From a virus (Duplodnaviria > Heunggongvirae > Uroviricota > Caudoviricetes), in the IMG/VR virus record IMGVR_UViG_2617270980_000003: 64,000 nt of DNA; one strand, given 5' to 3'. Under the pieces are notes generated by a model. That model was given only the letters and a program-made list of their open reading frames with translations, ran no database searches and was not told the origin of the DNA. This document shows positions 26,217-58,526 of this stretch, one piece after another. The first letter of the stretch is position 1; each line of letters opens with the position of its first letter. The translations under genes were made by a program, and so were the position numbers.

Positions 26217-26266
26217 AATGTTACCGTAATATGTGAGTATCCATCGACTAGACACTAAGCAAAAAA

Positions 26267-26290
26267 GCTCCCGAAGGGGCTTTTTTTTAA
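26267..26290. terminator. Bidirectional terminator-like hairpin near the P2-like prophage right junction
   Basis: AAAAAA-GCTCC-cgaa-GGGGC-TTTTTTTT. Confidence 0.5.
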
Positions 26291-26356
26291 GATTTAACCA
26301 AATGAAATAAAAGGATTTATTTCAGGTCATGTCCACTTACCGACCACATCTATTCA

Positions 26357-26381
26357 AAAGCCCCGCAATGCGGGGCTTTTA
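26357..26381 (-). terminator. Rho-independent terminator immediately downstream of ogr
   Basis: GCCCCGC-aat-GCGGGGC 7-bp stem flanked by A-run and T-run. Confidence 0.6.
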
Positions 26382-26630
26382 TCATATAGTCAAACTTAAC
26401 TGATCGCGTCCATAGTGCGAAGCGGGAAAGACACCTGCGGGAATAAAGTCAGGCGCTAATTTATCGCGCCGCTCACGCTTGGTGACAATTTTTTCAACAC
26501 TGTTAAGCGTTGTGAATGACAAGCCGCATTCCATATTCTGGCACTGATGGTATTGGCGAATCGTTACTTCACTAAGAGGCTTACTGGTGCGAGTGCGGGC
26601 CGTAGCGCCGCAGTGTGGGCATTTGAACAT
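26382..26630 (-). CDS. ogr: Ogr/Delta-family zinc-finger late-gene transcription activator
   Basis: MFKCPHCGA...RYHQCQNMECGLSF with four-Cys pattern, as in P2 Ogr (recalled); located at prophage end next to D. Confidence 0.85.
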   Translation of the reverse strand: MFKCPHCGATARTRTSKPLSEVTIRQYHQCQNMECGLSFTTLNSVEKIVTKRERRDKLAPDFIPAGVFPASHYGRDQLSLTI

Positions 26631-26668
26631 AATGGTGACTCCCCTGGGGAGTTGAACTCATCACCATT

Positions 26669-27916
26669 CTATTCAGTTTCTGCGATCCAGTCAGATATTT
26701 TTGCTTCAAAGTTAAGCTGTGTTGTGAATCCATTACTATCAACATCATGCTGTACCTTGCTGATTATCCAGTCCTGGGCGTCAATATCAGCTTTAAAACC
26801 GGTTACCGTTGCGTGCATTTCCGGGTACAACTCCGCGCGCCCGCGCGCCAGGGTGATCGAAAACTCCGCCGCGCCGCGCTGTAACTGCTGCCACTTTGCC
26901 GCCGCTGCGCGCCTGGCGGCTTCTTCGTTCTGGAAGGTTTTACGCATAATAAAAACGTTACCTTCAGCGCCTTCAATATAGTCACCTTCCCTGCTGCTGC
27001 TCTTATCCGCTTTTTTAGTTGTGGCACGACGACGGACACTGACCTTTTTCTTTTTCCCGTAATTCAGATCAAGCCAGTACGCGCGGACGCCGGTATAAGC
27101 GTCACGATCAGCAACGCGGAAGCGGTGCCGGTCGCCACTGCTGCGCGTGATGGCAATCGACGGAATAGCCTTCCCTGATGCTGTGAAACCACCACCCGGC
27201 ACGATAAATAACAGACTGCCATTTTTTACCGTGGCGATGGCCCCTAACATTTCCGCCATTCTGGTCAGAAATGACATATCGCTTTCCTGAGTCTGATCGG
27301 CGTGGTCAATTTCCACATCCATCAACAGATCGCTGATTTGCGGCGTCAGGTCATACCGTTTTGCGATAGCGGACACAACCCGCTCCACAGTCACATCATG
27401 CCAGGAGACTTCACGCTTCACGTTAAACTCTTCTCTGAAATCTGCACTCCTGGCGGTCACCGTGATACGGTCTGGCGGCCCGTCATGCGCGACTTCATCA
27501 ACCGTGTACACGCCCTTATAAACCAGCGCTTCACCCATCCACCCCAGCCAGAAAGACAACTCAGCACCGCGCAGCGGAAGGGCAACGCCTCCATCAGTAT
27601 CATCCAGCTCTAATGTCAGCTGATCGGCGTCAAATCCCCTGTTGTCCGTCAGGCTGATGGATATCACGCGATCTGATAATTCTGTTAACACCTTTCCGCC
27701 CTGCCGGACGCTGAATGCCGGTATTTTTAACGCCTCCGTCAGGATGTCATCGACACCGCCAGCCGCGCCCGAAATCATACTGCTGATCACTGAAACACTC
27801 ATACACCCTCCCGTTTTGCTGAATAATTCCACGCGGGCGCGCGTGGGAGAATTCGTTTTAGTTGTCAGAGAGATAGCACAACCAGAAAGGCGTGAAGCTG
27901 TTACGTCAATCAGCAA
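26669..27916 (-). CDS. D: P2 gpD-like tail protein; likely true start ATG 27802 (377 aa)
   Basis: ...ISLTDNRG.DADQLTLELDDTDGG...DRDAYTG...FSITLARGRAELYPE... parallels P2 D as recalled; track start 27916 is TTG. Confidence 0.85.
   Translation of the reverse strand: MLIDVTASRLSGCAISLTTKTNSPTRARVELFSKTGGCMSVSVISSMISGAAGGVDDILTEALKIPAFSVRQGGKVLTELSDRVISISLTDNRGFDADQLTLELDDTDGGVALPLRGAELSFWLGWMGEALVYKGVYTVDEVAHDGPPDRITVTARSADFREEFNVKREVSWHDVTVERVVSAIAKRYDLTPQISDLLMDVEIDHADQTQESDMSFLTRMAEMLGAIATVKNGSLLFIVPGGGFTASGKAIPSIAITRSSGDRHRFRVADRDAYTGVRAYWLDLNYGKKKKVSVRRRATTKKADKSSSREGDYIEGAEGNVFIMRKTFQNEEAARRAAAAKWQQLQRGAAEFSITLARGRAELYPEMHATVTGFKADIDAQDWIISKVQHDVDSNGFTTQLNFEAKISDWIAETE
27863..27880. promoter_or_regulatory. 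Ogr-type late-promoter activator site (TGT-N12-ACA) between divergent D and FI
   Basis: TGTcagagagatagcACA; ~70-85 bp from both D ATG (27802) and FI ATG (27944/27956); embedded in a ~30-bp element repeated at 45024-45056. Confidence 0.6.
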
Positions 27917-27943
27917 TCATGGTGGCGAACTCAACAAAACGTA

Positions 27944-29146
27944 ATGGTGACAAACATGTCTGAGACACGTTTTCACGGTGCTCGCACCAAAGAAGAAACC
28001 GACATCACGAAGGTAATTAACGACATTGACTCCAGCGTCATTGGCGTAATTGTCATCGCTGATGACGCGGACGAAGACGCATTTCCACTCAACACCCCAA
28101 CGCTTATCACGCGGCCTCAGTCGATGCTGGGCAAGGCGGGGAAAACAGGGACGCTGTACAAAACGCTGAAAGCCATTTCAGACCAGGCAAGCGCGAAAGT
28201 CATTGTTGTTCGTGTCGCCGCAGCCAAGCCGCTGGAAGGCGACGCAGAAGCGGAAACGCAAGTGCAACTGATTATCGGTGGCTCTGATGCTGAAGGTAAC
28301 TACACCGGCATGTATGCGCTTCTGACTGCCGAACAGAAGACACAGTATCGACCGCGCATCCTGGCGGTTCCTGAATACGACACCGAAGAAGTGACGGCAC
28401 AGCTTTGTGTGATCGCCAAACAGCTTCGCGCCTATGTTTATGCAAGCTGTAACGGCTGCAAGACGCTGGCGGAAGCCCTCGCGTATCGTAAAACCTTCGC
28501 ATCACGCGAACTCACGCTGATCTGGCCTGACTACATCGCATATAACCAGGTGTCCGGGGAAAATGAAGTATTCCCGGCCCCGGCCTATGCGGTAGGGCTG
28601 CGCGCGTTTATTGATAACCAGTACGGCTGGCACCGCTCGCTATCTAACATTGCCGTCAGCAATGCGCTTGGCATTTCGAAGGATGTTTTCTGGGCGCTTC
28701 AGGCTGAAGACAGTGACGCACAGACGCTGAACAACGCCGAAATCACCACCATCATCAAGCGTAATGGCTTCCGTTTCTGGGGTAACCGCACCACAGACAC
28801 CAATGAATTTGTGTTTGAGGTGTACACCCGCACGGCGCAAATCCTGGCGGACACCATCGCAGAGGCGCAATTTGAAACCATTGACGGGCCACTCACCCCG
28901 ACCAACGTGAAAGACGTGGTGAGCGCGATTAACAAGAAACTCAGTGCACTGGTCACAGCTGGCAAGTTGCTTGGCGCGGAAGCCTGGTTTGACATCGTGG
29001 ACAACGGAACCGCAAACCTGATTCAGGGCAAAGTGGCGATCCGCTACAAGTACACGCCGGTGCCACCGATGGAAGATTTGACGCTGATCCAGACGTTCAC
29101 CGATGAATATTTTGAAGGCGCGTTTTCGTCTCTGGGGAGTAACTAA
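27944..29146 (+). CDS. FI: Tail sheath protein (P2 FI-like)
   Basis: 400 aa; ...GFRFWGNRT...YTRTAQ..ADT..EA... and C-terminal ...YTPVPP.E.LTL... match P2 FI as recalled. Confidence 0.9.
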   Translation: MVTNMSETRFHGARTKEETDITKVINDIDSSVIGVIVIADDADEDAFPLNTPTLITRPQSMLGKAGKTGTLYKTLKAISDQASAKVIVVRVAAAKPLEGDAEAETQVQLIIGGSDAEGNYTGMYALLTAEQKTQYRPRILAVPEYDTEEVTAQLCVIAKQLRAYVYASCNGCKTLAEALAYRKTFASRELTLIWPDYIAYNQVSGENEVFPAPAYAVGLRAFIDNQYGWHRSLSNIAVSNALGISKDVFWALQAEDSDAQTLNNAEITTIIKRNGFRFWGNRTTDTNEFVFEVYTRTAQILADTIAEAQFETIDGPLTPTNVKDVVSAINKKLSALVTAGKLLGAEAWFDIVDNGTANLIQGKVAIRYKYTPVPPMEDLTLIQTFTDEYFEGAFSSLGSN

Positions 29147-29659
29147 ATGGCGATTCCACCAAAACTACGGCTGTTCACCTGCTTTGTGAACAGCGTGAAC
29201 AATATCGGCAAAGTGACATCTGTCACGCTGCCAAAACTGACCCGCAAAACTGACGACTATCAGGGCGGCGGGATGATTGGCTCTGTTGCTGTCGATCTCG
29301 GACTGGATAGCGGCGCGCTTGATGCCACGATGGTTGTAGGCGGCCTGGTTCAGGCTCTGCTACTGGAATACGGCGGCGATCTGGACGGAACGCTTATCCG
29401 ATTCACCGGGGAATATTACACATCCGGCGAGAGTCAGATCGTTGACGTGGAAATGCGCGGCAAATTCACCGAAATCGACGGCGGCGAAAGCAAGCAGGGC
29501 GAAGATACGTCCGTAACCTACGCCATTAAAAACACGTACTACAAGCTGTCAATTGACGATAAGCCCATCTGGGAAATTGACCTGCTGAACTTCGTGTACA
29601 AACGCAACGACGAAAATATTTACCCTTCCCGCGTAATGTCTGCGCTGGGCATGGGATAA
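29147..29659 (+). CDS. FII: Tail tube protein (P2 FII-like)
   Basis: 170 aa, directly after sheath gene. Confidence 0.85.
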   Translation: MAIPPKLRLFTCFVNSVNNIGKVTSVTLPKLTRKTDDYQGGGMIGSVAVDLGLDSGALDATMVVGGLVQALLLEYGGDLDGTLIRFTGEYYTSGESQIVDVEMRGKFTEIDGGESKQGEDTSVTYAIKNTYYKLSIDDKPIWEIDLLNFVYKRNDENIYPSRVMSALGMG

Positions 29660-29712
29660 CTAACAACCACTACAGGCGCGGCATCGGGTGATGCCGCCCG
29701 GAGATTAAAACG

Positions 29713-30024
29713 ATGACCGAAGAAAACACCGTAACACTGACACGCCCGATTAAACGCGACGGCAACGAAATCAAAACCATCACGATCACTGACGAAGTGA
29801 AACAGGCTGGTACCCTGCGCGGCCTTCGCCTGGTGAACGTGATGAATATGGACGTGGACAGCATCAGCACCCTGCTAACCCGCTGCACTTCCCCGCGCCT
29901 GAAGCTCAAAGAAATCAGCGAAATGGCAACATCTGACTTTGTTGAACTTTGCGAGGCGCTCACGCCTTTTTTAGCGCCGAAGGAGCCTGGCACGAAGAAC
30001 GAGACGGAGACGGAGAGCGAGTAA
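29713..30024 (+). CDS. E: Tail assembly chaperone E
   Basis: 103 aa, between tube and tape measure genes. Confidence 0.8.
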   Translation: MTEENTVTLTRPIKRDGNEIKTITITDEVKQAGTLRGLRLVNVMNMDVDSISTLLTRCTSPRLKLKEISEMATSDFVELCEALTPFLAPKEPGTKNETETESE

Positions 30025-30185
30025 ACGCGCCCCACTTTGACCTGATCGATGATCTGGTTGCTGATATAGCAGTTATTTTCAACTGGCCGCCCTCAGAGGT
30101 TTTCACTATGTCCCTGAGTGAGGTGATAGCCTGGCGTGAACGGGCGGCTATCCGAAGCGGAAACAGTGAAGATGAAAGACCTTAA
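29713..30185 (+). CDS. E+E' fusion product via -1 programmed frameshift at T_TTT_TTA (29967-29973)
   Basis: Slippery heptamer TTTTTTA in E frame; the -1 frame stays open to 30185 (...FFSAEGAWHEERDG...), overlapping the T start. Confidence 0.6.
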
Positions 30186-33144
30186 TATCCGTGTCGCCTT
30201 CAGTGCGATTGATAAGTTAACCCGCCCGGTAAATGCCGCCCGCAACTCAGTGGGCGGCTTATCTGAATCCCTCAAAAAAACACAATCGTCTATCAAAGAT
30301 CTGGAAACGCAATCCCAGGCATTCAACCGCCTGAATGAGCGCGTTAAAAAGACATCCCAGCAACTCACCACAACACAGCGAGCCTTTGACGGCCTGAATA
30401 AAGCACAGAAAAACGGCACGGTACTAACCGACGCACAGCGCGAGCGCATGACGGCACTGGCAGCGAAACTTGATCGCCTGAATGCCAGCCGGTCACAGGA
30501 GACAGCAAAACTCCAGCAAGCGTCCCAGGCGCTGCGCGCGCACGGCGTTTCACTGGCGGGCGGCGATCGCACAATTCAAAGCGCTATCAGACGCACTGAG
30601 CAATACAACCAGACGCTTGAGAGAGAACGGCGACAACTTGCCGCAGTCACCAACGCGCGCGCCCGTTATGACCGTCTGAGCGCCACAGCGGGCAAATTGC
30701 GCACCGGCGGCGCGGTGGCGATTGGCGCAAGCGCGGGAGCGGGCTACGCTGCCGGACGCTTCCTGGCCCCTGCCGTGGGTTTTGATGAGGAAATGTCGCG
30801 CGTAGGCGCACTGACCCGCCTGGATAAAGGCGATGAACAGTTTGCCGCCCTGCGCGCCCAGGCCAAAAAACTTGGCGCTGAAACCGCATTTACCACGCGA
30901 GACGCCGCCAGCGGGCAAGCCTTCCTGGCAATGGCTGGCTTTACACCACAGTCAATTCAGGCTGCGCTGCCTGGCGTTCTGAATATGGCGCTAGCCGGTG
31001 GCATGGATCTGGGTGAGTCCGCTGATATCGGTTCAAACATCCTGACGCAATTCAAGCTGTCATCAGATCAGATGGACAGGGTTGGCGATACGCTAACAGC
31101 CGCATTTACCCGTACCAATACCGACCTGCGCGCCCTGGGCGACACAATGAAATACGCGGGGCCAGTGGCGGCTAATCTGGGTATTAGCCTGGAAGAGGCA
31201 TCCGCTATGGCGGGGATGCTTGCCAATAACGGTCTGCGCGGCAGTGACGCGGGTACAGCATTACGTTCCAGTCTATCCCGCCTTGCTTCACCACCAAAAG
31301 CCGCGGCTGATGCTCTGAAAGAGCTAGGCGTGTCGGTTGCCGACGCCAACGGGAAAATGCGCCCGATGGAAACGGTACTGTTAGACCTTTTCAAAGCCAC
31401 ACAGAAATACGGGCAGGTTGATCAGGTATCTTTCTTCAAAAATATCGCCGGTGAAGAGGCCTTTGTGGGCCTCCAGACGCTGGTACAGGCGGCAGGCTCG
31501 GGAGAACTACAAAAGCTCACAAAAGAACTTCAGGGCGCTGCCGGTGAATCCGCTACCGTCGCAAAAAAAATGGCGGACAACCTGGGCGGGGATCTAAAAG
31601 AACTCGATAGCGCCTGGGAAGCATTCCGTATCCAGATTGAAGAACTGGCGGACGGCGCACTGCGAAAACTCACCCAGGCACTGACCGGCACGATCGGCGT
31701 GATGACTGAATGGGCGAATAAGAATCCGCAGCTATCAAAAACCCTTCTGGCTGTTGGCGGCAGTGTGCTGGCCCTCACCGCCGGGATTGGCGCAACGTCC
31801 CTGGCTATTGGCTTACTTCTGGGGCCACTGGCAAAACTTCAACTCGGCTTTGCCCTGCTAACCAGCGGGAGCGGGCTGGGTGGCGCGGTGACACTGTTCA
31901 GCCGCCTGGCTGGCGTTATTTCCGGGCCGCTTGGCGGCATCCGTGGCTGGGGTGTCGTCTTCAGTAGAATGACCGGCAACGCCGGGAAACTGGCTGGCGC
32001 GCTTGCCCCATTGAGAGGACTGCTTGCCGCCGCGTTTATCTCACCAGGTGCCGCCCTGGGCGGAATTGTAAAAGGGCTTGGTAGTCTCCTGCTTCGCCTG
32101 ACCGGCATACCTGCAATCATGGGGATCGCTAGCTCGGCCCTCTCGATGCTCGGCGGCGCGCTGTCATTGCTGTTAAGCCCGATCGGGCTGATTGGCGCGG
32201 CCTTCATTGCCACAGGGTTGCTTATCTGGCGATTCTGGGAGCCGATCAAAGCCTTCTTTGCGGGCTTCTTTGCCGGTGTAATGCAGGCGCTTACGCCGTT
32301 CCGTGATGCCTTCGCCGGACTGGCCCCCGTCTTTGATGTGATCTCAAATGCCGTTTCTCAGTTGTGGCAGTGGTTCAGCAACCTGCTTTCACCAATGACG
32401 ACCAGCAAAGAGACATTGGATAAATGCGCAAGCGCTGGGGAGACGTTCGGCAAAGTGTTTGGCCTGGCAATTCAGGGGCTAATGTTACCTCTGACTGGAT
32501 TGGCCAAAATGGTTGGCTGGATACTTGAAAAGCTGGGGCTGATTCCGTCCGGGATTGAAGCGGCGAAAGCAAAAGCGGAGAAAGTGCAGAAGGAACTCAC
32601 ACCGGCAGGATTGGCTATGCTGCAGGACAAGGTTGGCACGCTCACTGTCGATATGAAAGCAGTAACCGCGCCACCTATCGCCCCACCATCACCAGTGATT
32701 GCTGTTGATACGGGAACTCAACGGCGGTTACAGAAAATTGCGGACAATACCGGCGGGATGCTGGATGCAACCAAAAAGCGGATCGGCCCTGGCGATATCG
32801 TGTTTAAGAATCTGCCCCGCGCATTAGCCGTCCACGGCGCATGGCAGGAAGCACAATCACCCCCAGGCGCAAACCTGGCCCAACTTAGCGCGCGCCCGGT
32901 TATCGCGGCGGCATCAGCACCGATTAAACCGGCAGTTGAAGTACAGGCTATTAGCGGGCAATCCAGTAAACAAGCCAGCAAACCGGCGCAAAACACCGCT
33001 CCTGATGAAATACATATTCACATTCATATGCACGGCGATCTCAGCAACGACGCCCGCGACATTGCACGGATGGTGACTGATGCAGTTGGGGCAGAACTTA
33101 ACAAGCGTTCCCGCTCTGGTAGCAGTTTCAGAGACAAAGATTAG
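30136..33144 (+). CDS. T: Tail tape measure protein (P2 gpT-like); track start is GTG, first ATG at 30172
   Basis: 1002 aa, coiled-coil N-terminus, Gly/Ala/Leu-rich hydrophobic middle region. Confidence 0.85.
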   Translation: MNGRLSEAETVKMKDLNIRVAFSAIDKLTRPVNAARNSVGGLSESLKKTQSSIKDLETQSQAFNRLNERVKKTSQQLTTTQRAFDGLNKAQKNGTVLTDAQRERMTALAAKLDRLNASRSQETAKLQQASQALRAHGVSLAGGDRTIQSAIRRTEQYNQTLERERRQLAAVTNARARYDRLSATAGKLRTGGAVAIGASAGAGYAAGRFLAPAVGFDEEMSRVGALTRLDKGDEQFAALRAQAKKLGAETAFTTRDAASGQAFLAMAGFTPQSIQAALPGVLNMALAGGMDLGESADIGSNILTQFKLSSDQMDRVGDTLTAAFTRTNTDLRALGDTMKYAGPVAANLGISLEEASAMAGMLANNGLRGSDAGTALRSSLSRLASPPKAAADALKELGVSVADANGKMRPMETVLLDLFKATQKYGQVDQVSFFKNIAGEEAFVGLQTLVQAAGSGELQKLTKELQGAAGESATVAKKMADNLGGDLKELDSAWEAFRIQIEELADGALRKLTQALTGTIGVMTEWANKNPQLSKTLLAVGGSVLALTAGIGATSLAIGLLLGPLAKLQLGFALLTSGSGLGGAVTLFSRLAGVISGPLGGIRGWGVVFSRMTGNAGKLAGALAPLRGLLAAAFISPGAALGGIVKGLGSLLLRLTGIPAIMGIASSALSMLGGALSLLLSPIGLIGAAFIATGLLIWRFWEPIKAFFAGFFAGVMQALTPFRDAFAGLAPVFDVISNAVSQLWQWFSNLLSPMTTSKETLDKCASAGETFGKVFGLAIQGLMLPLTGLAKMVGWILEKLGLIPSGIEAAKAKAEKVQKELTPAGLAMLQDKVGTLTVDMKAVTAPPIAPPSPVIAVDTGTQRRLQKIADNTGGMLDATKKRIGPGDIVFKNLPRALAVHGAWQEAQSPPGANLAQLSARPVIAAASAPIKPAVEVQAISGQSSKQASKPAQNTAPDEIHIHIHMHGDLSNDARDIARMVTDAVGAELNKRSRSGSSFRDKD

Positions 33145-33156
33145 GAGAGCAAAACA

Positions 33157-33645
33157 ATGATGATGGTTTACGGAATGTTCGTCTTTGAGTTAAAAACCAT
33201 TCCCCACCAACAATTACAGCAGTCAAAGACATGGCGGCATGTAAAGAACGAGCGCATAAACCGATCGGCAAAGTGGCAATACATTGGTGCAGGTGACGAT
33301 CAGATTACCTTATCCGGTGTTTTGTACCCATCAGTGACCGGCGGTAAGGTGAGTCTAACTGTGCTCGATACACAGGCCTACACCGGACGCCCCTGGCCTC
33401 TTATCAGCGGCACCGGGCGGATCTATGGCATGTATTCGATAACGCAGCTTCAGACCACCGATACTGAATTTGACCAGTATGGGGAGCCGAAGAAAATAGA
33501 ATTTACGATCACGTTTCAAAGGCAGGATGAAGACCTGCGCGAAAGCCTCCAGTCTTCATCAGTGAGTGATTTACTCGGCAACCTGCAAAACACAGCCAAC
33601 TCAGCGCTGAATAATATCAGCGCCGCCGCATCCAGTCTGTTTTAA
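33157..33645 (+). CDS. U: Tail protein U (P2 gpU-like)
   Basis: 162 aa, MMMVYGMFVFE..., follows tape measure gene. Confidence 0.75.
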   Translation: MMMVYGMFVFELKTIPHQQLQQSKTWRHVKNERINRSAKWQYIGAGDDQITLSGVLYPSVTGGKVSLTVLDTQAYTGRPWPLISGTGRIYGMYSITQLQTTDTEFDQYGEPKKIEFTITFQRQDEDLRESLQSSSVSDLLGNLQNTANSALNNISAAASSLF

Positions 33646-34782: not shown

Positions 34783-35234
34783 TCCTCAGGGATATCAGGC
34801 CAGATAATGTCGGGGGCTTTTGATGTGTCAATACGCATTAATAGCACCCGATATTTCTTCCACTTCGCAAGCTGAATAACTTCATCATCGGTTGAAATAC
34901 CAGCTTCAATCGCATCCTGCCGCCACGCAATTTCTGTACCTGCATTTTCAGCCAAGTCTTTTTTTTGCTGTATAGCTAACGCAATTAACTGATCGGCTGT
35001 AGGCTCTGATACATCAACCCATACAGGCTGACCGGAAGCGTCGCCTCCTCTACCTTTTCCTTCTGGCGGCCTTCCTGTGTATTTCTGATAAATATCAGAT
35101 TCAACTTCAACAATGTCATCAGGCCATGTATTCGTTTTTTCATAGTCTGATTTCATTGACTCAAAAAAGAATGAGTTATTCTTAGCACTGAAATATATAT
35201 TACTAAACATAATTAACACCCCACACCAAAGCAA
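34779..35234 (-). CDS. Tail fibre assembly protein (P2 gpG / Tfa-like)
   Basis: ORF immediately downstream of tail fibre gene; stop shares the TTAA with the convergent acyltransferase stop. Confidence 0.7.
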   Translation of the reverse strand: MLWCGVLIMFSNIYFSAKNNSFFFESMKSDYEKTNTWPDDIVEVESDIYQKYTGRPPEGKGRGGDASGQPVWVDVSEPTADQLIALAIQQKKDLAENAGTEIAWRQDAIEAGISTDDEVIQLAKWKKYRVLLMRIDTSKAPDIIWPDIPED

Positions 35235-49936: not shown

Positions 49937-51088
49937 ATGTCATCAGAAAAAACAATAGAACGTTTCGTTGCAGCAGATGTTAGCGGTGCAATCTGGTTAC
50001 GATTAAAACGATTAATGAGTGCGCAGCTCTGTAAGAAAATAATAGAAAATAATCATCCGTCATTGCAAGAGGATGTATTGATTAAAAAATCCATTGGAAT
50101 GTCCTCCGCAATACGAAGTGCAATCGGATATTGGGAGACTGAAAATGGCGGACTCAATTCAAAAATTTTATCCAGATATTATGCATTATTACAGATAAGC
50201 TTAGCTGAACAAATATCATCAGGGGATCCTAACGACGATTTAAAAAATGTTCAAAAGCATACGGTTTCAGGTCATGGGCTATTCACACAATCTGTTGAAA
50301 ATGAAACATTCCCAGACAATATAAAAATAGGCTGTCTTAAAAGTGGACATTTTTATTCATATGCAAAGCATATAGGAATTGATATCAAACAGTATGCAAC
50401 AGAAAGACGTCCAAAAAAAGATGAAGATTTAGACCCATCACGCACCTATTCTTTAACTGATTTATTAAAACGAATTCCAGAATTAAGACCGCTTTTACAA
50501 GAAACTTTCGGTGAAGATCCACTTTCATTCCAAATTGGACAAGCAAGTAGAAACATGCTCTTAAGATCAAGGAATCAGTCACTCGGTGGCCTATCGCGTC
50601 CTAAACCAGAGTTCTCAGGTTTTACATATGCCGCAATTTATCCCAAAGGTAGCGATGTAACAGCAGAAGAGCTTAATTCTTACAACATTGGAATAAAAAA
50701 CATTGAAATTGAGTCAGAAGAAAACCTCACAAAATATGACCAACCATATTTTGTAGGAGAAGTCCATCACCCTGAAGATGAGCTATGGTGGGATTATGTC
50801 ACGACACACAAATCTGGTTATTGTGGAACGAGTGTAATTGTCCCATTTTGGGGAACTCAAGATCCCTTTGTATTACACTTAGTCGTATTATATACATTAA
50901 GCATTATAGTCAGGTATCTCCCTGACACTTGGTATGAGATTGAGCATGGCAAACTTGATTATATTAATTCCCTTTTGGAAAATTATTTAGCTATTTTTGA
51001 TAGTGTACTGCCTAAACTTGCGGTTGAAAGATTAACGAAAGTTCATTTGGTAGTAACAGCACCCGATAGCATGAATTCCCCTATCTAA
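49937..51088 (+). CDS. Hypothetical protein (second cargo gene in hotspot), no recognisable domain
   Basis: 383-aa ORF, AT-rich, own upstream region; C-terminal hydrophobic segment PFVLHLVVLYTLSIIVRYL. Confidence 0.6.
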   Translation: MSSEKTIERFVAADVSGAIWLRLKRLMSAQLCKKIIENNHPSLQEDVLIKKSIGMSSAIRSAIGYWETENGGLNSKILSRYYALLQISLAEQISSGDPNDDLKNVQKHTVSGHGLFTQSVENETFPDNIKIGCLKSGHFYSYAKHIGIDIKQYATERRPKKDEDLDPSRTYSLTDLLKRIPELRPLLQETFGEDPLSFQIGQASRNMLLRSRNQSLGGLSRPKPEFSGFTYAAIYPKGSDVTAEELNSYNIGIKNIEIESEENLTKYDQPYFVGEVHHPEDELWWDYVTTHKSGYCGTSVIVPFWGTQDPFVLHLVVLYTLSIIVRYLPDTWYEIEHGKLDYINSLLENYLAIFDSVLPKLAVERLTKVHLVVTAPDSMNSPI

Positions 51089-51157: not shown

Positions 51158-51469
51158 TCAATCATCATCTTGGTCATCCCCAGTGTCGCGAACGCATGAT
51201 TTTGACTCAAAGTATTTTTTTTCCGCAGCGGTAATCAGGGCTTGGTGTTCAGGGAAATCACGAAACACGTCTACTGCGGGCCATTCAATTTTCGTCACAA
51301 CCAACTTAGGCCTACTTTCCACCTCAGCTTCATCCTGGCTGATATAATGACTTTTTGACTCACGTTCCTCATGCGAAGATTCTCGATAATAGAGCCAATT
51401 TTGATAGTCAGCTTCCCGTTCATAATCATCAAAGTACTTGCCCACGCTTCCCCCCATTAATGAGCGCAA
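51158..51469 (-). CDS. Hypothetical acidic small protein downstream of A (overlaps A 3' end)
   Basis: 103-aa ORF with C-terminal ...DTGDDQDDD; may be spurious. Confidence 0.3.
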   Translation of the reverse strand: MRSLMGGSVGKYFDDYEREADYQNWLYYRESSHEERESKSHYISQDEAEVESRPKLVVTKIEWPAVDVFRDFPEHQALITAAEKKYFESKSCVRDTGDDQDDD

Positions 51470-54008
51470 CCCTTAATCTTTCAAGGAGTACATCATTCTC
51501 CCGCTTCCTTTCCGCTTTAACTCTCTGCTTAACTTCATCGCGGCGCTGTTCGACTACTTCTACCCCCTTCAGCTTCATAGTACAAGCCAAGCAGAGCTTT
51601 TCATCGCCATAGGTTATATCATCCTGATTTAACTCCGCATTACAATCTCTAGCCCTACAGTAAATTGCTTTGGTCTTTTCTACCAGATAGCCATCCTTCA
51701 GATAAACATGTCGATCATCAAAAGAAAGCAAAGCCCCGCGACGAAGGGCATCAATATCAGGCTTGGACTTAATTCCCCAAGAGGAAAGCTGATAGCGAAG
51801 GTGAGCAGTCATTGGTGTGGCCTCCACAACACTGCTCCGCCGGGTTGCTGATTCATCGCGGATAGCCGCCGCCACTTTCATGTAATTTTCAGCGCGCTCC
51901 TGATCTGCGCTATCGCAATCTGAAGCGGCAATAGCATTGGCAAGCGACTCAAACACATCAGCAGGTGATTTTTGCTGTTTTGGTTTGTAATTTCTGATGC
52001 TCTCATTAAGCCGTTTTTTCTGCTCTCGGCTCATTTGACCAATTTCATATTGTTCTGGATCTTCAGGCGGTGGATTTACCGCCCCTTGATTTGTATGTTT
52101 TTTGTACTCAGTACAGTTATTGACACGAGTCCAAGAGGGCGCGGGCGCGCCCTTAAGGTCAAAACCTCGATCGGCGGCGTCGTCTGCTTTTGGCTTCTTT
52201 TTGACAATGCGATAAGAATGGAGGCGGGTTTCAACCGGAGGAACGGTCGATGCTGGCATGACCACCCCTTTAATAACCCTCTGAAACTCGCCGTAACTGC
52301 TCGGCTCATCCCGATATTGATACCAGGCGCGCAACACAAGCCTATTCCGTGTCACGAACGGACCACCCTGCAAGGTGATGTAGTCCTGCCAGTTCCCGGC
52401 ATGGGCGGCGCGGTGTAACTCACCGAAAACCGGACTGATTCGATCTGCCATTTCCTGATTCTTCAGGCGGCGTAACTCACGCCAGACGGACACCGGCGCG
52501 CCACCCAGAAACTGAAACTGACGAATGCCCCAGCATGAAGCCCAGGCAGTAGCGTGTTTTGCTGTCTCCTTCAGTGGGCGTCCGCTTTCGTCGTCGCTTT
52601 CACCATCCAGTGCATAACCGTCGATGTTTTTAGATATGTACTTAACGACATATCCAGTAGCGCTCCCCAAAGCCGGATCTATCGGCTTAAGTTCAAAGCG
52701 GGGCTGTTTGCCATTCTTGCCGGTGAGTTCATCAGCATCTTCACGCGTGGCGTAGTCTTCCATCACTTCCAGCAATTCGCCGGTATGCTCTGGGGCTGTG
52801 AACAGAAGGCCATGCCAATGCGGAGTACCATCATGGTGAGACTCTGCAACACGAAGGCCAAAAACAGAAATCTCACGGCGCGCAAGCTCCGCGCGGATCA
52901 GTTGCCAGACGCGATTAAGGTAGTTTTGTGTCTTGCGGGGGCTGGCTCCGTTCCATTTGCGGTTACGATGCCCGAACGCTGTAAAGGCATGATATTTAGA
53001 CGGCGCGGTCAGGGTGAAGAAACTGCCGGCAAACCCGCTTTCCGTTGCCACCTTCTCAAATCCACCAATGCGCGTCATCAACTCAACACGGCGCTTTTCA
53101 GGATTAGAAATGCTCTTATCAATCTGCTCTATCAGCGAAATGCGCTCACCAGTTACCTGATCTTCAAGTTCAAGGCGGCTCATAATTGCGCGGCTACGCT
53201 TACGGCGTGAATCCCACTGCGTAACGTGGTGTTTGCTGCAATACGGTGAAACATCGCGGCGCACGTCACCATAGGCAATGTGCAAATGCTCGCGCCAGCG
53301 GCGGGCGTACTTGCGCAGGAGGCGTGACCAAAAGCGATCATGAAGGGTTTTTTGTATTGCTGCTGTCGCTTCATCAAGCGCCATCCGGCGCTTCTTCGCC
53401 CAGGGCGGCACTAACCTGAAATACGCAATCAGCCTGGAGCCTTCACGCAGCATGCGTTTGGTGTATTCAGTATCGTTGAACACACTTGCACCCTCGCTCA
53501 CTTCAGCCAAAACAGCATTGGCATAAATGGCTATGTCCTGAGCCAGCAAATCAATATCTTCATCCGTGCAATCCGCCAGATTATTAAAGCGGCGGACAAG
53601 TTCACGCAGATTTTCAAACGAGTGAAACAGTGGGTTTAGTTCAGAGAAAATGATCCACTCATTGTCTTCTGGCACAGCGTATTGTTTCGTGACGTTTCTG
53701 ACGTGTGGAAGCTCGCGCTTAACGATGTCGCGCAACTTCAGTTTTGCGATATGGCGCCCTTTATCCTCGTGAACGGTATTTATGTAAGAGGCAATGCGGC
53801 GGCGAATGAAGATAGGCAACGGCTTGAGGGGATTTTCAACCCAGGCGAAAAACTCCTGCTCTTGACCCAATTCATATAGATCAACAGCGGGAGCCTTATC
53901 AACGAAGATGGCGGCTTTTGGCTCATTCCAGGCGTAAGCATACCGGGCTGGCTCGATAGAGCCTCCCGGCATGTTGGTCATGCTATGAGAGCGGCGAAAT
54001 GAAGACAT
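51429..54008 (-). CDS. A: Rolling-circle replication initiator (P2 gpA-like HUH endonuclease)
   Basis: 859 aa; HUH motif ...HHDGTPHWHGLLF... and Tyr motif ...GYVVKYISKN...; early-operon position. Confidence 0.85.
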   Translation of the reverse strand: MSSFRRSHSMTNMPGGSIEPARYAYAWNEPKAAIFVDKAPAVDLYELGQEQEFFAWVENPLKPLPIFIRRRIASYINTVHEDKGRHIAKLKLRDIVKRELPHVRNVTKQYAVPEDNEWIIFSELNPLFHSFENLRELVRRFNNLADCTDEDIDLLAQDIAIYANAVLAEVSEGASVFNDTEYTKRMLREGSRLIAYFRLVPPWAKKRRMALDEATAAIQKTLHDRFWSRLLRKYARRWREHLHIAYGDVRRDVSPYCSKHHVTQWDSRRKRSRAIMSRLELEDQVTGERISLIEQIDKSISNPEKRRVELMTRIGGFEKVATESGFAGSFFTLTAPSKYHAFTAFGHRNRKWNGASPRKTQNYLNRVWQLIRAELARREISVFGLRVAESHHDGTPHWHGLLFTAPEHTGELLEVMEDYATREDADELTGKNGKQPRFELKPIDPALGSATGYVVKYISKNIDGYALDGESDDESGRPLKETAKHATAWASCWGIRQFQFLGGAPVSVWRELRRLKNQEMADRISPVFGELHRAAHAGNWQDYITLQGGPFVTRNRLVLRAWYQYRDEPSSYGEFQRVIKGVVMPASTVPPVETRLHSYRIVKKKPKADDAADRGFDLKGAPAPSWTRVNNCTEYKKHTNQGAVNPPPEDPEQYEIGQMSREQKKRLNESIRNYKPKQQKSPADVFESLANAIAASDCDSADQERAENYMKVAAAIRDESATRRSSVVEATPMTAHLRYQLSSWGIKSKPDIDALRRGALLSFDDRHVYLKDGYLVEKTKAIYCRARDCNAELNQDDITYGDEKLCLACTMKLKGVEVVEQRRDEVKQRVKAERKRENDVLLERLRVALINGGKRGQVL

Positions 54009-54190
54009 TAAGCCGCCTCAGATGAAAACCGTGTCGCCTGGCTGTATCGCTCTTGCGTCACGTTCAGAGTAGGTGATCAGGTCTGTATTGCTGTAACCAC
54101 CCTCGCCCAGAACTTCAACGCGAGTGATCCAATAATTACGGCGCGGGAGAACATCCAGCACCTTTGTCACTACAACCTCAACGGTATTCA

Positions 54191-54655
54191 TCAGAATGGC
54201 GCTCCATCATCAAAATCGAACGGGGGAGGCGTCGTCTTCCATGTCACCGGTTTACCTGGTTTACATTTCCGCGCGGCCTTGACTGTTGGATAGTTGAGGG
54301 AATGCCGGACAACTTCATCAGTCCACAAATCGTGCGCCTCGAAATCAACGCGCCAGCAACCTTTGCTAATGCAGCGGCGTGAAAAAACGCGCGTAACAAC
54401 GGCGCAAACCGTATGACTTTCAGGCTCGGCTTCAGCGGCAGGATCAAAGCCAAGAAAAACAAGCTCACTACTGTGAGACTTAATCAGGGGATCAAGAACC
54501 GCCCCGAAAGACTTACGAAGCGTCTTTTCAACATCAGGGCCAGCCAAAAGACCTGCATAACCAGCGTGAATTAATGCAGCCTCTTTTGCCTTTTCTAACG
54601 CCGCTATCGCGCCTTGCAGATAGCTCACGTGATCGTTAATGGACGGAGTAATCAT
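54191..54655 (-). CDS. Hypothetical protein (154 aa from ATG 54655) with SSB C-terminus-like tail
   Basis: Start ATG overlaps dam stop (TGATG); C-terminus ...PPPFDFDDGAPF resembles the SSB tip D-F-D-D-D-I-P-F. Confidence 0.5.
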   Translation of the reverse strand: MITPSINDHVSYLQGAIAALEKAKEAALIHAGYAGLLAGPDVEKTLRKSFGAVLDPLIKSHSSELVFLGFDPAAEAEPESHTVCAVVTRVFSRRCISKGCWRVDFEAHDLWTDEVVRHSLNYPTVKAARKCKPGKPVTWKTTPPPFDFDDGAPF

Positions 54656-55647
54656 CAGAAGTCCTCTGCTGCTGTGTATGAATCGCAGATCTCGCAGTTG
54701 CGACAGCAAAAGGTATCGCTTCCAGATTCATAGCCATCGCCAGCAACGGCAGGGCAACAGGTAGCGCAATAACCACGCCCTACTTGCCCGCACTCGTCAC
54801 AGACGAGCAGCGAACCAATCACCTCACCCGCGAGATTGCGTGTTTTTGCTCCCACAGAACGCCGGACTTCGAATGAGTTAAGGGTGAACGGGTAGTAAAT
54901 TTGGCGCGTTTCCGGGGTGTCACTGCCGGAAATAACAGAGGGTATTTTTGCCTGGTTGTAGAGGCGTGAAAGCATCGCAACCAGGGCGCGATGGTCTTCA
55001 TCAGTAAAGGGCTTACCGTATGCAGTAAAATTTGCAGTCTCGCTGGCTGGCAGGTATGGAGGATCGCAATAAACCACGCAGCCTGAATGCCCGATAGATA
55101 GAGGAATTGTTTCTCTGAAATCACCATGCAGGAACATTGCCCCTTTGTCCCAAGCCCTTTTTGCAAAATGCTGAATCTCAGCCACAGGGAAAATTGGCTT
55201 CTTACGAAAACCAAAAGGAACGTTGAATTCATTCTTTAAATTAACACGGTAAACACCGTTGTAGCAGTGACGATTCAAATAAAGAAATAGCGCTGCATAT
55301 TTAACTAATTCATCATTTGTATATTGCTCTCTATGCCCTGCGTACTCGCGATTAAAAATATTGAAGTCATCACGATTTATGTAATATGCATCTTCATTAT
55401 TACCAGTCAAAAACAAGGCGGATGCATAAGTTAAAAGCGCTTCTGTGTTGCGCTTAACCATAGAGAAGAAATTAATTAGGGCTGCATTGCTATCACACAG
55501 AATATAGGTTTTATAGTCTGTATTCAGAAAGACGCTACCACTACCCACAAAAGGCTCAACGAGGCATTCACCCTGCGGCAGAGCATCCAGTACATGAGGC
55601 ATCGCGCGAGACTTGCCGCCAGCCCAGATCAGAGGGGAGTTAATCAC
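54655..55647 (-). CDS. dam: Dam-like DNA N6-adenine methyltransferase with Cys-rich C-terminal extension; start revised to GTG 55647
   Basis: ...LIWAGGKSRAM... and DPPY motif (VVYCDPPYLP); C-terminal ...CDECGQVGRGYCATCC...CCRNCEICD; GTG 55647 preceded by AAGGAG, track ATG 55719 has no SD. Confidence 0.75.
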   Translation of the reverse strand: MINSPLIWAGGKSRAMPHVLDALPQGECLVEPFVGSGSVFLNTDYKTYILCDSNAALINFFSMVKRNTEALLTYASALFLTGNNEDAYYINRDDFNIFNREYAGHREQYTNDELVKYAALFLYLNRHCYNGVYRVNLKNEFNVPFGFRKKPIFPVAEIQHFAKRAWDKGAMFLHGDFRETIPLSIGHSGCVVYCDPPYLPASETANFTAYGKPFTDEDHRALVAMLSRLYNQAKIPSVISGSDTPETRQIYYPFTLNSFEVRRSVGAKTRNLAGEVIGSLLVCDECGQVGRGYCATCCPAVAGDGYESGSDTFCCRNCEICDSYTAAEDF

Positions 55648-55807
55648 TTTTTTGCTCCTTGATTTCTGCGGCCTGTTCTCTGTTGTCGATCCAGTTTTCC
55701 AGGCTGCGATAAATTTCATTGGTGGACAGTTTTTCTTTTTTCAGCAAGGTTAATTTGATACGTAACAATCCAAGCAGGTGCGCGCGTTCATTTGTTTGAA
55801 TTGTCAT
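55640..55807 (-). CDS. Small ORF (55 aa), not in ORF track, translationally coupled to dam
   Basis: ATG 55807 preceded by AGGGGG; MTIQTNERAHLLGLLRIKLTLLKKEKLSTNEIYRSLENWIDNREQAAEIKEQKSD; stop overlaps dam GTG. Confidence 0.45.
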   Translation of the reverse strand: MTIQTNERAHLLGLLRIKLTLLKKEKLSTNEIYRSLENWIDNREQAAEIKEQKSD

Positions 55808-55887
55808 AATCAACCCCCTGAAAAAAGATAAAGCGAAGCCCCGGTAAAAACGCCGTAAATAAAATGATTTAGATTGCAGTTAATTAA

Positions 55888-56169
55888 TTAGCGAGCGCCG
55901 CTATTCCAGTATTTTTCTAATTCAATACTGAAGGTGTCACATATAGAGCCACCCGGAAGAATAGAAAATTGAATGCCCGTTTCCTTACATCGCACCTCAA
56001 AACCATTTTTCGCTATATCAGACAGTGCCATTCCCTGAACAACATTACGCGACTTGCTGTGTTGGTGATTTGGACCATAGCCACTACGGGACGGCGTGCG
56101 GGTTCCGTCCTGCCTGGAAGCATTGACGCTCTGGCGAGCGTTCAGAATAGCTGCGGTTGAAGTAGTCAT
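55888..56169 (-). CDS. hypothetical protein, P2-like early operon
   Basis: 93-aa ORF in tight array. Confidence 0.4.
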   Translation of the reverse strand: MTTSTAAILNARQSVNASRQDGTRTPSRSGYGPNHQHSKSRNVVQGMALSDIAKNGFEVRCKETGIQFSILPGGSICDTFSIELEKYWNSGAR

Positions 56170-56363
56170 TATTTCCCCCGATGAAGCTGATCAATCGTCT
56201 GACGGGCCTGAGACAGACCGAAGTCCAGCCCCAGATAATTTCCGCCTTTGGTGATTTGGTAGCGCTGCCGTGAATACGGCTTTTTGCGCGGCAACTTCAC
56301 GATCGTGAAGCCGCGATAAATTGCTGTTTTGCTGTTGATTTGGATAAGCATCGCAAACTCCAT
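56169..56363 (-). CDS. hypothetical protein, P2-like early operon
   Basis: 64-aa ORF immediately after cox. Confidence 0.4.
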   Translation of the reverse strand: MEFAMLIQINSKTAIYRGFTIVKLPRKKPYSRQRYQITKGGNYLGLDFGLSQARQTIDQLHRGK

Positions 56364-56367: not shown

Positions 56368-56643
56368 TTATGAACGATCGCCCAATCCTAACCACATCAA
56401 CCACCCCTCTCTGATTTCCTTCGGACGGCTTTCATATGCTAGTTTCATGCCGTTGTTCCATGCCGGAAGATATACCCAGTATTCTCCCGCACGCCCAGAC
56501 GTGGATTGCGGATCGGTCATTTCAATAACGGGCAACTTCCCTTTTTCGATCATTCCCTTCACGGCTGCCGGTGTTTTACCGATGAGTTTTGCAAACTCCT
56601 GGTAAGGAACCGCGTCAGTTGCACTTACAAGCTGTCTGTTCAT
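56368..56643 (-). CDS. cox: Cox-like regulator/excisionase (P2 Cox position)
   Basis: 91 aa, divergent from C repressor gene, first gene of early operon. Confidence 0.65.
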   Translation of the reverse strand: MNRQLVSATDAVPYQEFAKLIGKTPAAVKGMIEKGKLPVIEMTDPQSTSGRAGEYWVYLPAWNNGMKLAYESRPKEIREGWLMWLGLGDRS

Positions 56644-56668
56644 CTGTTACATTCTCCTATCGTGCAAC

Positions 56669-56698
56669 TAATTGCTCTTAATGGGCTTTAATTGCTCT
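56669..56698. promoter_or_regulatory. C/cox switch operators: two direct repeats TAATTGCTCT spaced 20 bp
   Basis: Repeats at 56669-56678 and 56689-56698; P2 C repressor is known to bind directly repeated half-sites. Confidence 0.5.
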
Positions 56699-56763
56699 GA
56701 ATGAATAACCAGAAAGGGGTTAAACACACCCTTTCGAGTCAATATTCTTAGATAGGAGTAACT

Positions 56764-57063
56764 ATGTCAACCCCGATATTTGAAAAGATAAAACTCATCC
56801 GTGAATCAGAAAGGTTAAACAAGAGGCAATTCAGCGAGTTAACGGGCATTGCCTATAGCACGTTGGGGGGCTACGAATCTGGAGTTAAAAGTCCCGGCGT
56901 AGAAGCCATAATGAAAATGCTACAGCACCCCAGATTTAGTAAATACACCCTGTGGTTTATGACCGATCAAATTGCTCCTGAAGCCGGTCAGATTGCACCG
57001 GCACTCGCACACTTTGGGCAAGATGTAACAACATCGCAGCACTCAGACCAAAAGACTGGTTAA
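56764..57063 (+). CDS. C: Immunity repressor C (P2 C-like)
   Basis: 99 aa; ...FSKYTLWFMTDQIAPEAGQIAPALAHFGQ... matches P2 C as recalled. Confidence 0.85.
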   Translation: MSTPIFEKIKLIRESERLNKRQFSELTGIAYSTLGGYESGVKSPGVEAIMKMLQHPRFSKYTLWFMTDQIAPEAGQIAPALAHFGQDVTTSQHSDQKTG

Positions 57064-57208
57064 CTATTCACCGTGCGTATATTTATTACAAAATTTGTTT
57101 ACTTGTTGCTAAGTATGACAAATACAACAAATTTGCTGGAGATACGCGCAAAGCCAAAGTAACAGCAGCAAAGAAAAAGCAACTTATCGCCATTCGTCCG
57201 GGGGTCTT

Positions 57209-58222
57209 ATGACAATTAAGAAACTCGATGATGGTCGTTATGAAGTGGACATTAGACCTAGCGGACGCAACGGAAAACGCATCCGCAGGAAGTTTGACAA
57301 GAAAAGTGAGGCAGTGGCCTTTGAGAAGCACACGCAATACAACCACCACAACAAGGATTGGTTAGCGAAGCCGACCGATAAAAGGCAACTTTCCGAATTG
57401 ATTCAAATCTGGTGGGAACTCAAGGCAAAGCACGAGGAATGGGGAAAGTACAATCGGGGAAAGGTCGAGAAATTCGCGGCGATAACCGGTGATCCGTGCG
57501 CGTTTCAGATTACAAAGACGGTAATTAGCCAGTATGTTGCAGCTCGGCGAGGTGAAGGCGTTAAGCCATCTACCATCAATCGGGATCTGACATGCATCAG
57601 CGGAATGTTTACCGCTCTGATTGAGGCCGAGCTATACCATGGCGAACACCCGATAAGAGGACGTAAACGACTCAAAGAGGAGAAGCCCGAAACGGGCTAT
57701 TTAACCAACGAGGAAATTACCGCCCTTTTCTCGCGGCTCGATGGTGACAATAAAAAAATAGCGGTTCTTTGCCTAAGCACGGGCGCTAGGTGGGGTGAAG
57801 CGGCAAAACTGAAAGCCGAGCACATCATCCATAATCGGGTGACGTTTGTTAAAACCAAAACGAACAAACCCCGAACGGTGCCAGTATCGGCAGAAGTATG
57901 TGAAATACTCACCAGCGTGAAGCGCGGCTTCCTGTTCCCGAATGCCGATTACACGTTGTTCCGGCAGGTACTGAAAGAGGTAAAGCCCGACCTGCCAGCA
58001 GGACAGGCAACCCATGCTCTACGGCACAGTTTTGCTACGCATTTCATGATTAACGGAGGAAGCATTATCACGCTACAAAGGATACTCGGTCACGCGCGCA
58101 TAGAGCAGACAATGGTCTACGCGCACTTCGCGCCAGAGTATTTACAAGATGCCGTAACACTCAATCCGTTAAAGGGCGGCATTGAACCCGAAAACGTCCA
58201 CACAGTGTCCACACTCGGGTGA
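57209..58222 (+). CDS. int: Tyrosine integrase (P2 Int-like)
   Basis: 337 aa; C-terminal catalytic region ...HALRHSFATHFMINGGSIITLQRILGHARIEQTMVYAHF... Confidence 0.9.
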   Translation: MTIKKLDDGRYEVDIRPSGRNGKRIRRKFDKKSEAVAFEKHTQYNHHNKDWLAKPTDKRQLSELIQIWWELKAKHEEWGKYNRGKVEKFAAITGDPCAFQITKTVISQYVAARRGEGVKPSTINRDLTCISGMFTALIEAELYHGEHPIRGRKRLKEEKPETGYLTNEEITALFSRLDGDNKKIAVLCLSTGARWGEAAKLKAEHIIHNRVTFVKTKTNKPRTVPVSAEVCEILTSVKRGFLFPNADYTLFRQVLKEVKPDLPAGQATHALRHSFATHFMINGGSIITLQRILGHARIEQTMVYAHFAPEYLQDAVTLNPLKGGIEPENVHTVSTLG

Positions 58223-58526
58223 TTTATAGCGGCTTTCAGTGGCTTTATGTGGTGCTCAAACCCGCATTACACCGCTGAAAGCCCGTATATCAAAGGGCTA
58301 CCAACGCCCCCGATGGAGCCTTCATTTTCACTTTCTTAAATCTAACGATAGACGGCTAACATTTAAGTATTGTGAAATATTATCAAATGTAATCATCATT
58401 GATTTACAAAAGATACATTTTGCCCCGAAAGGATTCCTGTCAGAAACATCAAAAGATGATGTTCTATACTGAGAACCATGGCAACACGGGCATCTAAAGT
58501 GAATATGGTTTGTAATATTTTCTACC

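Follow-up and report, generated by a model that had tools for sequence, protein, structure and literature searches.

Insertion of one prophage into another has been described for lambdoid phages of Shiga toxin-producing and enteropathogenic Escherichia coli, where the host prophages are all defective and their attB is thought to be derived from the chromosome (Nakamura et al. 2021, PLoS Pathog, PMC8112680). Here we analyze a related arrangement in a 64,000-nucleotide stretch of Caudoviricetes DNA (IMG/VR record IMGVR_UViG_2617270980_000003; hereafter, the window), in which a P2-family (Peduoviridae) prophage lies inside a Qin-type lambdoid prophage. As in the published cases, a temperate phage has integrated site-specifically at an attB within a resident E. 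coli prophage, and the host prophage is disrupted, in this case by a Mu-like element in tail gene J. However, the guest here is a P2-family myovirus in a lambdoid host, and the published study makes no mention of P2-like phages, ynfN, or cspI (PMC8112680). The attB is not derived from a chromosomal attB, as is thought for those cases. It appears to be a fortuitous look-alike hairpin. Its flanks have no similarity to the yoaF-dgcP site used by the same phage in Kluyvera-type bacteria, and the two sites share only a partial core. This link between Kluyvera-type bacteria and E. coli also sets the present case apart.

Helper-embedded phage-inducible chromosomal islands offer a second comparison. 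These satellites lie within a lambdoid late gene, are co-oriented, and depend on the helper (PMC10111431). The element in the window resembles them in being a mobile element in a lambdoid late region, with helper and guest linked in cis. In contrast, the guest here is an autonomous phage of another family, it occupies a hairpin of the moron region, and it has no evident dependence on the host prophage.

Phage P2 integrates by means of its integrase (Int), the integration host factor (IHF), and Cox. Its attP has a 27-bp core, and besides a preferred attB it uses secondary sites that match this core in part. P2-type integrases are reported to have intergenic, non-tRNA targets (PMC3448106), and the target here is of that type. 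The int-attP-ogr layout, the Int arm repeats, the IHF site, and the Cox region are common to P2 and the element. The element differs from P2 in its core, in its structural genes, in the inversion of the FI-U block, and in its cargo. Relative to the literature, the differences are the family of the guest, the look-alike hairpin where a transplanted attB would be expected, and the link across genera. Mechanistically this is standard site-specific recombination, and the prophage-in-prophage arrangement has been described before.

A P2-family prophage within a Qin-type prophage

We searched 5,426 complete E. coli genomes with the two junction regions by megablast. Thousands of genomes matched the left flank (up to 26277/26283), and thousands matched the right flank (from 58303/58309). 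The two matches meet, overlapping by 14 bp, in NZ_OZ546922, NZ_CP162160, and NZ_CP182174. Uninterrupted lambdoid prophages of other E. coli are collinear with the flanks at 99.7% identity. Therefore, an exact empty site exists. One such allele, at the AHB5 locus beside rspB, is a Qin-type lambdoid prophage without interruption, annotated in the order J … portal, terminase, DUF1441, gnsB, ynfN / ymcF, cspI, rzpQ, rrrQ, ydfR, essQ … Q, dicB, int. In local BLAST, the window is collinear with AHB5 at 96.4% identity (7895-17116), 99.67% (17288-26277), and 99.74% (58303-64000), and the last two alignments share 14 bp. Because this collinearity holds on both sides, both flanks belong to one element. 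A single host prophage thus surrounds the insert, and its uninterrupted allele is at hand. The late-region order gnsB-ynfN-(ynfR-ynfQ)-cspI-rzpQ-rrrQ-ydfR-essQ follows the terminase and head genes in the annotations of both AHB5 and K-12 Qin, and K-12 Qin holds an identical attB.

The insert itself is of the P2 family. A tblastn search with 42 annotated P2 proteins found homologs of Q, P, O, N, M, L, X, R, S, V, W, J, I, H, G, FI, FII, E, T, U, D, ogr, int, C, cox, and A, all within 26433-58216. Pfam matches included Ogr_Delta, Phage_GPD, Phage_GPA, Phage_Cox, HTH_3, and Int_N plus Phage_integrase, as well as Phage_lysozyme, LysC, a tail-collar fiber, and a tail-fiber chaperone. The nested P2-family prophage in a Qin-type lambdoid prophage is therefore confirmed. 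A first-pass annotation, made from the letters of the window, had described a P2-like prophage flanked on both sides by lambdoid genes in the Qin order gnsB-ynfN-cspI-rzpQ-rrrQ-ydfR-essQ. The homologs and domains bear out the first part of that description, and the AHB5 annotation reproduces the gene order, collinear across the junction with uninterrupted alleles. The comparison with uninterrupted prophages that it proposed showed the site empty in thousands of E. coli genomes, K-12 (Qin) among them.

Alignment to the empty site sets the ends of the element (Table 1). The insert between equivalent att positions measures 32,039 bp, and the boundaries rest on this alignment, not on repeat statistics. 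The interval first proposed, 26256-58526, contained the right element but had been drawn from gene to gene, so that it ran about 20 bp too far on the left and about 215 bp too far on the right. Likewise, the nesting was correctly recognized, but the insertion point is not between the ymcE-like and cspI-like genes in the sense of adjoining cspI. It lies between ynfN and ymcF/ynfQ, and in K-12 nomenclature it falls inside the 21-codon open reading frame (ORF) ynfR. ymcF/ynfQ and the 5' end of ynfR are thus part of the lambdoid prophage and not of the P2-family element. The insertion shortens ynfR from 21 codons to an 11-codon chimera, MKAPSGALVAL.

Table 1. Coordinates of the nested prophage, its att sites, and the flanking elements in the window
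Feature	Position	Strand	Remarks
P2-family prophage	26278-58308		Empty-site alignment, AHB5 flank collinearity, P2 protein homologs, identity to the ES1 prophage
attL core region	26267-26288		GCTCCCGAAGGGGCTTTTTTTT; left part from lambdoid attB, right part from attP
attL crossover octamer	26270-26277		CCCGAAGG
ogr-side att arm	26289-26381	-	P2-type Int arm repeats TGTGGTC / GTGGAC, IHF-like AT-rich site, ogr terminator hairpin 26351-26375
ogr and D	26382-27802	-	ogr 26382-26630, D 26669-27802
Late-promoter activator site copy	27854-27896	+	TGT-N12-ACA dyad; D/FI intergenic; paralog of 45025-45067 between O and P
Tail genes FI, FII, E/E', T, U	27944-33645	+	Opposite strand to the P2 orientation relative to D and ogr
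Acyltransferase_3 cargo gene	33745-34782	+	Low GC; P2 Z/fun position
O N M L X, holin candidate, lysozyme, LysB-like, LysC, R S V W J I H G	34779-44960	-	Head, lysis, baseplate, tail fiber and chaperone
Terminase large subunit P and portal Q	45117-47902	+	
cos-like site	48087-48105	-	GGTGACGGGGGGAAAGCCC; 15/19 bases of the P2 cohesive end; adjoins portal gene Q as in P2
Low-GC cargo at P2 old/tin position	48308-51088	+	KAP-family P-loop NTPase 48308-49657, YaaC-like protein 49937-51088
Early operon	51429-56363	-	Small ORFs, Dam-type N6-adenine methyltransferase 54655-55647, 154-aa ORF, replication endonuclease A 51429-54008
Cox	56368-56643	-	79.8% aa identity to P2 Cox
C-type immunity repressor	56764-57063	+	62.6% aa identity to P2 C
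Tyrosine integrase	57209-58222	+	337 aa; 80.7% aa identity to P2 Int
int-side att arm	58223-58305	+	Equivalent of P2 Cox-binding sites and P' arm repeat TGTGGACACTGTGTGGAC; repeat overlaps int 3' end
attR core region	58306-58328		GCCCCCGATGGAGCCTTCATTTT; left part from attP, right part from lambdoid attB
attR crossover octamer	58309-58316		CCCGATGG
Left lambdoid flank	21942-26216	-	Terminase large 21942-24041, DUF1441 small subunit 24050-24577, hypothetical protein, gnsB 25640-25813, ynfN 25986-26216
Right lambdoid flank	58323-61223	-	ynfR start codon 58325-58323, ymcF/ynfQ 58328-58516, cspI 58527-58739, rzpQ 59103-59600, rrrQ 59597-60130, ydfR 60452-61003, essQ 61008-61223
End of Mu-like prophage in lambdoid tail gene J	305-7894	-	Repressor-like 7103-7648, transposase 4598-6685, MuB-like ATPase 3583-4524, Gam 1700-2230

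Attachment sites and integrase

A three-way alignment of attL, attB, and attR gave AAAAAAGCTCCCGAAGGAGCCTTCATTTTC as the lambdoid attB. Both junctions are identifiable, against the empty site as well as against the P2 attP. Strand exchange occurred inside the 8-bp sequence CCCGA(A/T)GG, that is, within the two crossover octamers of Table 1. Of 22 positions, 16 are the same in attL and attR. Because the repeat is imperfect, it had escaped both the eye and a repeat search of 26000-58800, in which its short exact seeds went unreported. Comparison of the two ends, as the first-pass annotation had advised, thus did turn up a repeat, located beside int as in P2. Excision would leave AAAAAAGCTCCCGAAGGAGCCTTCATTTT as the repaired attB.

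The minus strand of the empty site is predicted to fold into the hairpin GCUCC-UUCG-GGAGC followed by U6 (-12.5 kcal/mol). This hairpin lies downstream of cspI-ymcF. In the predicted folds it is destroyed at attR and retained, with a bulge, at attL. It is contained within ynfR, a small ORF defined by ribosome profiling, directly after the ynfQ stop (58290-58325 on the minus strand; 6189-6254 in K-12 locus L090).

The arms on the two sides of the core are those of P2. Base for base, the ogr-side arm aligns with P2 sequence that is annotated as Int P-arm and IHF sites. The int-side arm aligns to P2 24399-24496 and is also conserved in the yegR-site and Kluyvera prophages. Arm-type direct repeats with the consensus tgTGGaCa are found on both sides of the core, GATGTGGTC...GTGGAC on the ogr side and TGTGGACACTGTGTGGAC on the int side, and both align to P2 sites. 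The same consensus is reported for the arm repeats of P2-type integrases (PMC3448106). Between these conserved arms, however, the 27-bp P2 core AAAAAATAAGCCCGTGTAAGGGAGATT is replaced by GCCCCCGATGGGGCTTTTTTTT.

The integrase parallels this pattern. As in P2, its gene stops close to attR (about 85 bp away), and its identity to P2 Int is 89% in the arm-binding domain, 78% in the core-binding domain, and 79% in the catalytic domain. These values would fit an enzyme that has kept its arm recognition and altered its core recognition. By alignment, then, the att sites and Int make up a P2-type system with a different predicted target specificity. Prophages whose int DNA is 77 to 82% identical lie at yegR and have the P2 core. 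The differing core led us to reject identity of the element with P2 or the yegR (locH-type) prophages, and the lack of tRNA genes in the window led us to reject tRNA-targeted integration.

Integrases that are 77 to 85% identical, with conserved arms, are also present in L023 (Citrobacter sp. FP75), L026 (E. ruysiae), and L003 and L004 (E. coli, yegR). Each of them uses a different GC-rich hairpin with a T-tract as its core; examples are GGCCGCTGCTGCGGCCTTTTT (Citrobacter) and the P2 core (yegR). A switch of target from one terminator-like hairpin to another seems to be a recurrent event in this Int clade.

The Kluyvera-type site and competing explanations

The public collection has 88 blocks with the identical Int protein and 69 with the identical Ogr. 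Among 24 contigs that were read for the identical Int, 21 have it at the lambdoid site and 3 beside a GAF-GGDEF gene. For Ogr, the lambdoid site accounts for 9 of 10 places shown, and one IMG/VR record also has the lambdoid junction. Neither that junction nor this int was found among the 5,426 complete RefSeq E. coli genomes (0/5,426).

At the GAF-GGDEF site, attR retains the whole core AACGCCCCCGATGGGGCTTTTTTTT in L007 and L008, whose Int is 100% identical, and attL retains it in L013. The repeat at this site is a perfect 24 bp. The flanks are orthologs of yoaF, yeaO, and nimT on one side and of dgcP on the other. The Kluyvera-type flank (L007) gave no megablast match in the complete E. coli genomes, which indicates that E. 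coli does not carry this site, and the yoaF-dgcP orthology then came from blastn against K-12. Among species-representative genomes, Kluyvera spp. have the closest integrases (98% and 90% identical), and the perfect core is the same there. Identity among the flanks of L007, L008, L021, and L022 is no more than 78 to 82%, and therefore several species are involved. The P2-like DNA of the lambdoid-site and Kluyvera-site copies is 99.94 to 99.96% identical, which points to very recent movement as a phage.

From these data, we infer that the phage has its canonical attB between yoaF and dgcP of Kluyvera-type enterobacteria, in the form of the perfect 24-bp core CGCCCCCGATGGGGCTTTTTTTTA. The lambdoid sequence GCTCCCGAAGGAGCCTTCATTTT has the same base as this core at 16 of 22 positions, and at the orthologous locus K-12, at any rate, has no canonical site. 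Because the core is perfect at the Kluyvera site and copies 99.96% identical are found there, the lambdoid hairpin is most likely a surrogate (secondary) attB in E. coli. The lambdoid-site copy L019 has another lambdoid background (87.7% identity in the terminase), and its attL carries the attP-type base T at the mismatched crossover position. This would fit a separate integration with heteroduplex resolution inside the overlap; the alternative is a pre-existing attB variant.

We therefore favor the explanation that a complete, recently mobile P2-family phage integrated, via its own P2-type tyrosine integrase, into a hairpin of a resident Qin-type lambdoid prophage that served as a surrogate attB, and we put its probability at roughly 0.85. 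In the proposed sequence of events, the P2-type Int, presumably with IHF, would integrate the phage into the hairpin-plus-T-tract of the lambdoid late-region moron cluster, between ynfN and ynfQ/ymcF and inside ynfR.

Several points weigh against this explanation. A search of IMG/VR and JGI metagenome contigs for the reconstructed attP junction CCAACGCCCCCGATGGGGCTTTTTTTTAAGATTT gave no exact match, so that present-day excision from this site is only putative. Homologs of the P2 B gene and of the P2-type holin and endolysin were not found in the element by tblastn, though analogous lysis genes are present. A better-matching attB may lie elsewhere in E. coli, as the check covered a single K-12 locus, the yoaF-dgcP spacer, in which no such core is present. 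A mismatch inside the presumed overlap normally reduces the efficiency of a tyrosine recombinase. In addition, most instances of the identical Int are at the lambdoid and not at the "canonical" site. This excess could reflect heavy sequencing of E. coli, or it could be a real preference. Several of the lambdoid-site copies have flanks that are 99.9 to 100% identical and may share one integration event.

The excess bears directly on the strongest competing explanation, in which the lambdoid hairpin is the preferred and selected target. The phage would then be a specialist that targets prophages, Qin-type prophages would be its portable landing pad, and the Kluyvera site would be merely another usable site. 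The counts at the lambdoid site agree with this, as do the conservation of attB in thousands of E. coli genomes and K-12 Qin and the occupation of no fewer than two lambdoid backgrounds. Prophage late regions have also been documented as repeated targets of certain integrase clades (PMC10111431). However, the attP core matches the Kluyvera site at 24 of 24 positions and the lambdoid site at only 16 of 22, with a mismatch in the crossover octamer. The close relatives of this Int in Kluyvera use the chromosomal site, not a single one of the complete E. coli genomes is occupied although the site is abundant, and the databases are strongly biased toward E. coli. We consider a preferred lambdoid target unlikely.

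Less probable still is that the P2-like element is a defective and immobile remnant, intact in looks only. The absence of an excised form or attP junction from the viral and metagenome collections would be expected of such a remnant, the closest isolated phage record is only about 73% identical in nucleotide sequence, and no P2 B homolog was found. Against this, the morphogenetic, lysis, replication, and switch genes are all open, as are all other expected genes, and no insertion sequence interrupts the element. The copies that are 99.96% identical at different sites in different genera imply very recent phage transfer, and the identical Int and Ogr are widespread in the public collection. The description of the element as intact-looking in the first-pass annotation is thus supported by the full gene set, the cos-like site, the P2-type switch, and these other-genus copies at another site.

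An assembly chimera, or nonsite-specific recombination of unrelated elements, is scarcely credible: repeated prophage sequences can in principle misassemble, but no support for this was found here, the junctions lie exactly at a P2-type core between conserved arms and restore a precise empty site, and the same junctions in many independent assemblies (NCBI, ENA, Logan, and IMG/VR) led us to reject an assembly artifact.

Gene content, host prophage, and consequences of the insertion

Nilsson et al. (2011; PMC3448106) provided the criteria for a complete (noncryptic) P2-like prophage. In the element, C and cox are divergent and form a complete switch together with the integrase gene, and a Pe-like promoter (56770-56741) overlaps the start of C, as in P2. 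The gene order is that of P2 apart from the strand of the FI-U block. FI-FII-E-T-U is inverted, while D and ogr keep their orientation, so that D and FI are divergent. The same inversion is present in the ES1 prophage described below and in all copies found. The structural (late) P2-type genes from Q to U, and D, are present at 30 to 58% amino acid identity to P2, with names that agree between Pfam and PGAP. The int-C-cox module is nearer to P2 (63 to 81%) than these structural genes are. By its protein identities, the element is a distant member of the Peduoviridae with a P2-type regulatory region. The combination of distant structural genes and a P2-type regulatory region has been noted before (PMC3448106).

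Of the complete E. coli genomes, that of ES1 contains the closest relative, a prophage at fieF/cpxP (NZ_CM184353). It is 96.4% identical over the 22 kb from ogr to Q and has the same gene order. In A and the Dam-type gene, identity is about 89 to 96%. However, from C to int it drops to about 71 to 74%, and the Int proteins are only 38 to 66% identical by domain. This drop indicates that the integration and immunity module has been exchanged. The two elements also differ in cargo: ES1 has a DNA methylase where the element here has the KAP NTPase and the YaaC-like protein. Among phage records, nucleotide identity does not exceed about 73%; Klebsiella phage ST16-OXA48phi5.4 reaches this value over the terminase and portal genes, and its Int is 79% identical.

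The KAP NTPase matches the PADLOC candidate PDC-S20 (E = 1e-74), with weaker matches to PifA and QatA. The YaaC-like protein has no PADLOC match. This cargo, with a GC content of 36 to 41%, is beside cos. The two proteins may be a putative, uncharacterized anti-phage pair; a literature search for a defense pair of KAP NTPase and YaaC-like protein found nothing specific. At the other cargo position, the Acyl_transf_3 gene sits between the tail operon and the tail-fiber chaperone, and ES1 has one too. It is a candidate for surface-polysaccharide (O-antigen) acylation in lysogenic conversion. The Dam-type methyltransferase of the early operon is of the D12 class, and ES1 has two such genes.

The two 43-nucleotide late-promoter activator sites are 77% identical. 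A MAFFT alignment of both copies with P2 pO/pP, pF, and pV was uninformative, and the TGT-N12-ACA dyad was seen by eye only. The copy between D and FI is a putative driver of transcription in both directions. The pair suggests that this phage clade has duplicated its bidirectional late promoter.

The lambdoid host carries a second foreign prophage. The junction between the Mu-like element and J is at 7894/7895, where the remainder of J begins; distal J and the rest of the Mu-like element lie beyond the start of the window. The Mu-like sequence, which also includes a ner-like gene, is 99.6% identical to Mu-like prophages of other E. coli. The host prophage in the window is therefore broken by this insertion irrespective of its P2-family guest. 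In L011 and L015 (about 7365-10249), from other assemblies with this nested P2-like phage, the gene disrupted by a Mu-like transposase module is DUF1441 (the small terminase gene) and not J. These insertions look like independent events in the same kind of host prophage.

The P2-family insertion would add 32 kb to the cos-to-cos unit of the lambdoid prophage and part its lysis genes from cos and the terminase. With this extra length between the lysis cassette and cos/terminase, the lambdoid genome would be too long to package unless the guest excised. We also considered whether the location is functional, with the Qin-borne hairpin acting as a portable attB that extends the lysogenic host range from Kluyvera-type bacteria to E. 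coli and opens an SOS-linked route of induction. The insert lies inside the Q-dependent late transcription unit of the lambdoid prophage, with the cox-to-A early operon co-oriented, so that SOS induction of the lambdoid prophage would transcribe the P2-type early genes in the sense direction and int and C in the antisense direction. If this were true, a P2-type phage that is normally noninducible would gain SOS-linked induction, while the 32 kb would make its host prophage unpackageable. We regard a functional role of this kind as quite improbable.

The window documents a cross-family prophage-in-prophage event with base-level att sites. A P2-type integrase with an altered core may colonize a species that has no canonical site by way of a look-alike hairpin on a widespread cryptic prophage. 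Since K-12 Qin carries the same attB, this idea is directly testable in the laboratory. Qin-type prophages may be sinks for more phages, as the lambdoid prophage in the window holds both P2-like and Mu-like insertions. The arrangement is relevant to prophage annotation, to programs that call prophage boundaries, and to the entry into E. coli of putative defense and conversion cargo such as the KAP NTPase with the YaaC-like protein and the acyltransferase.

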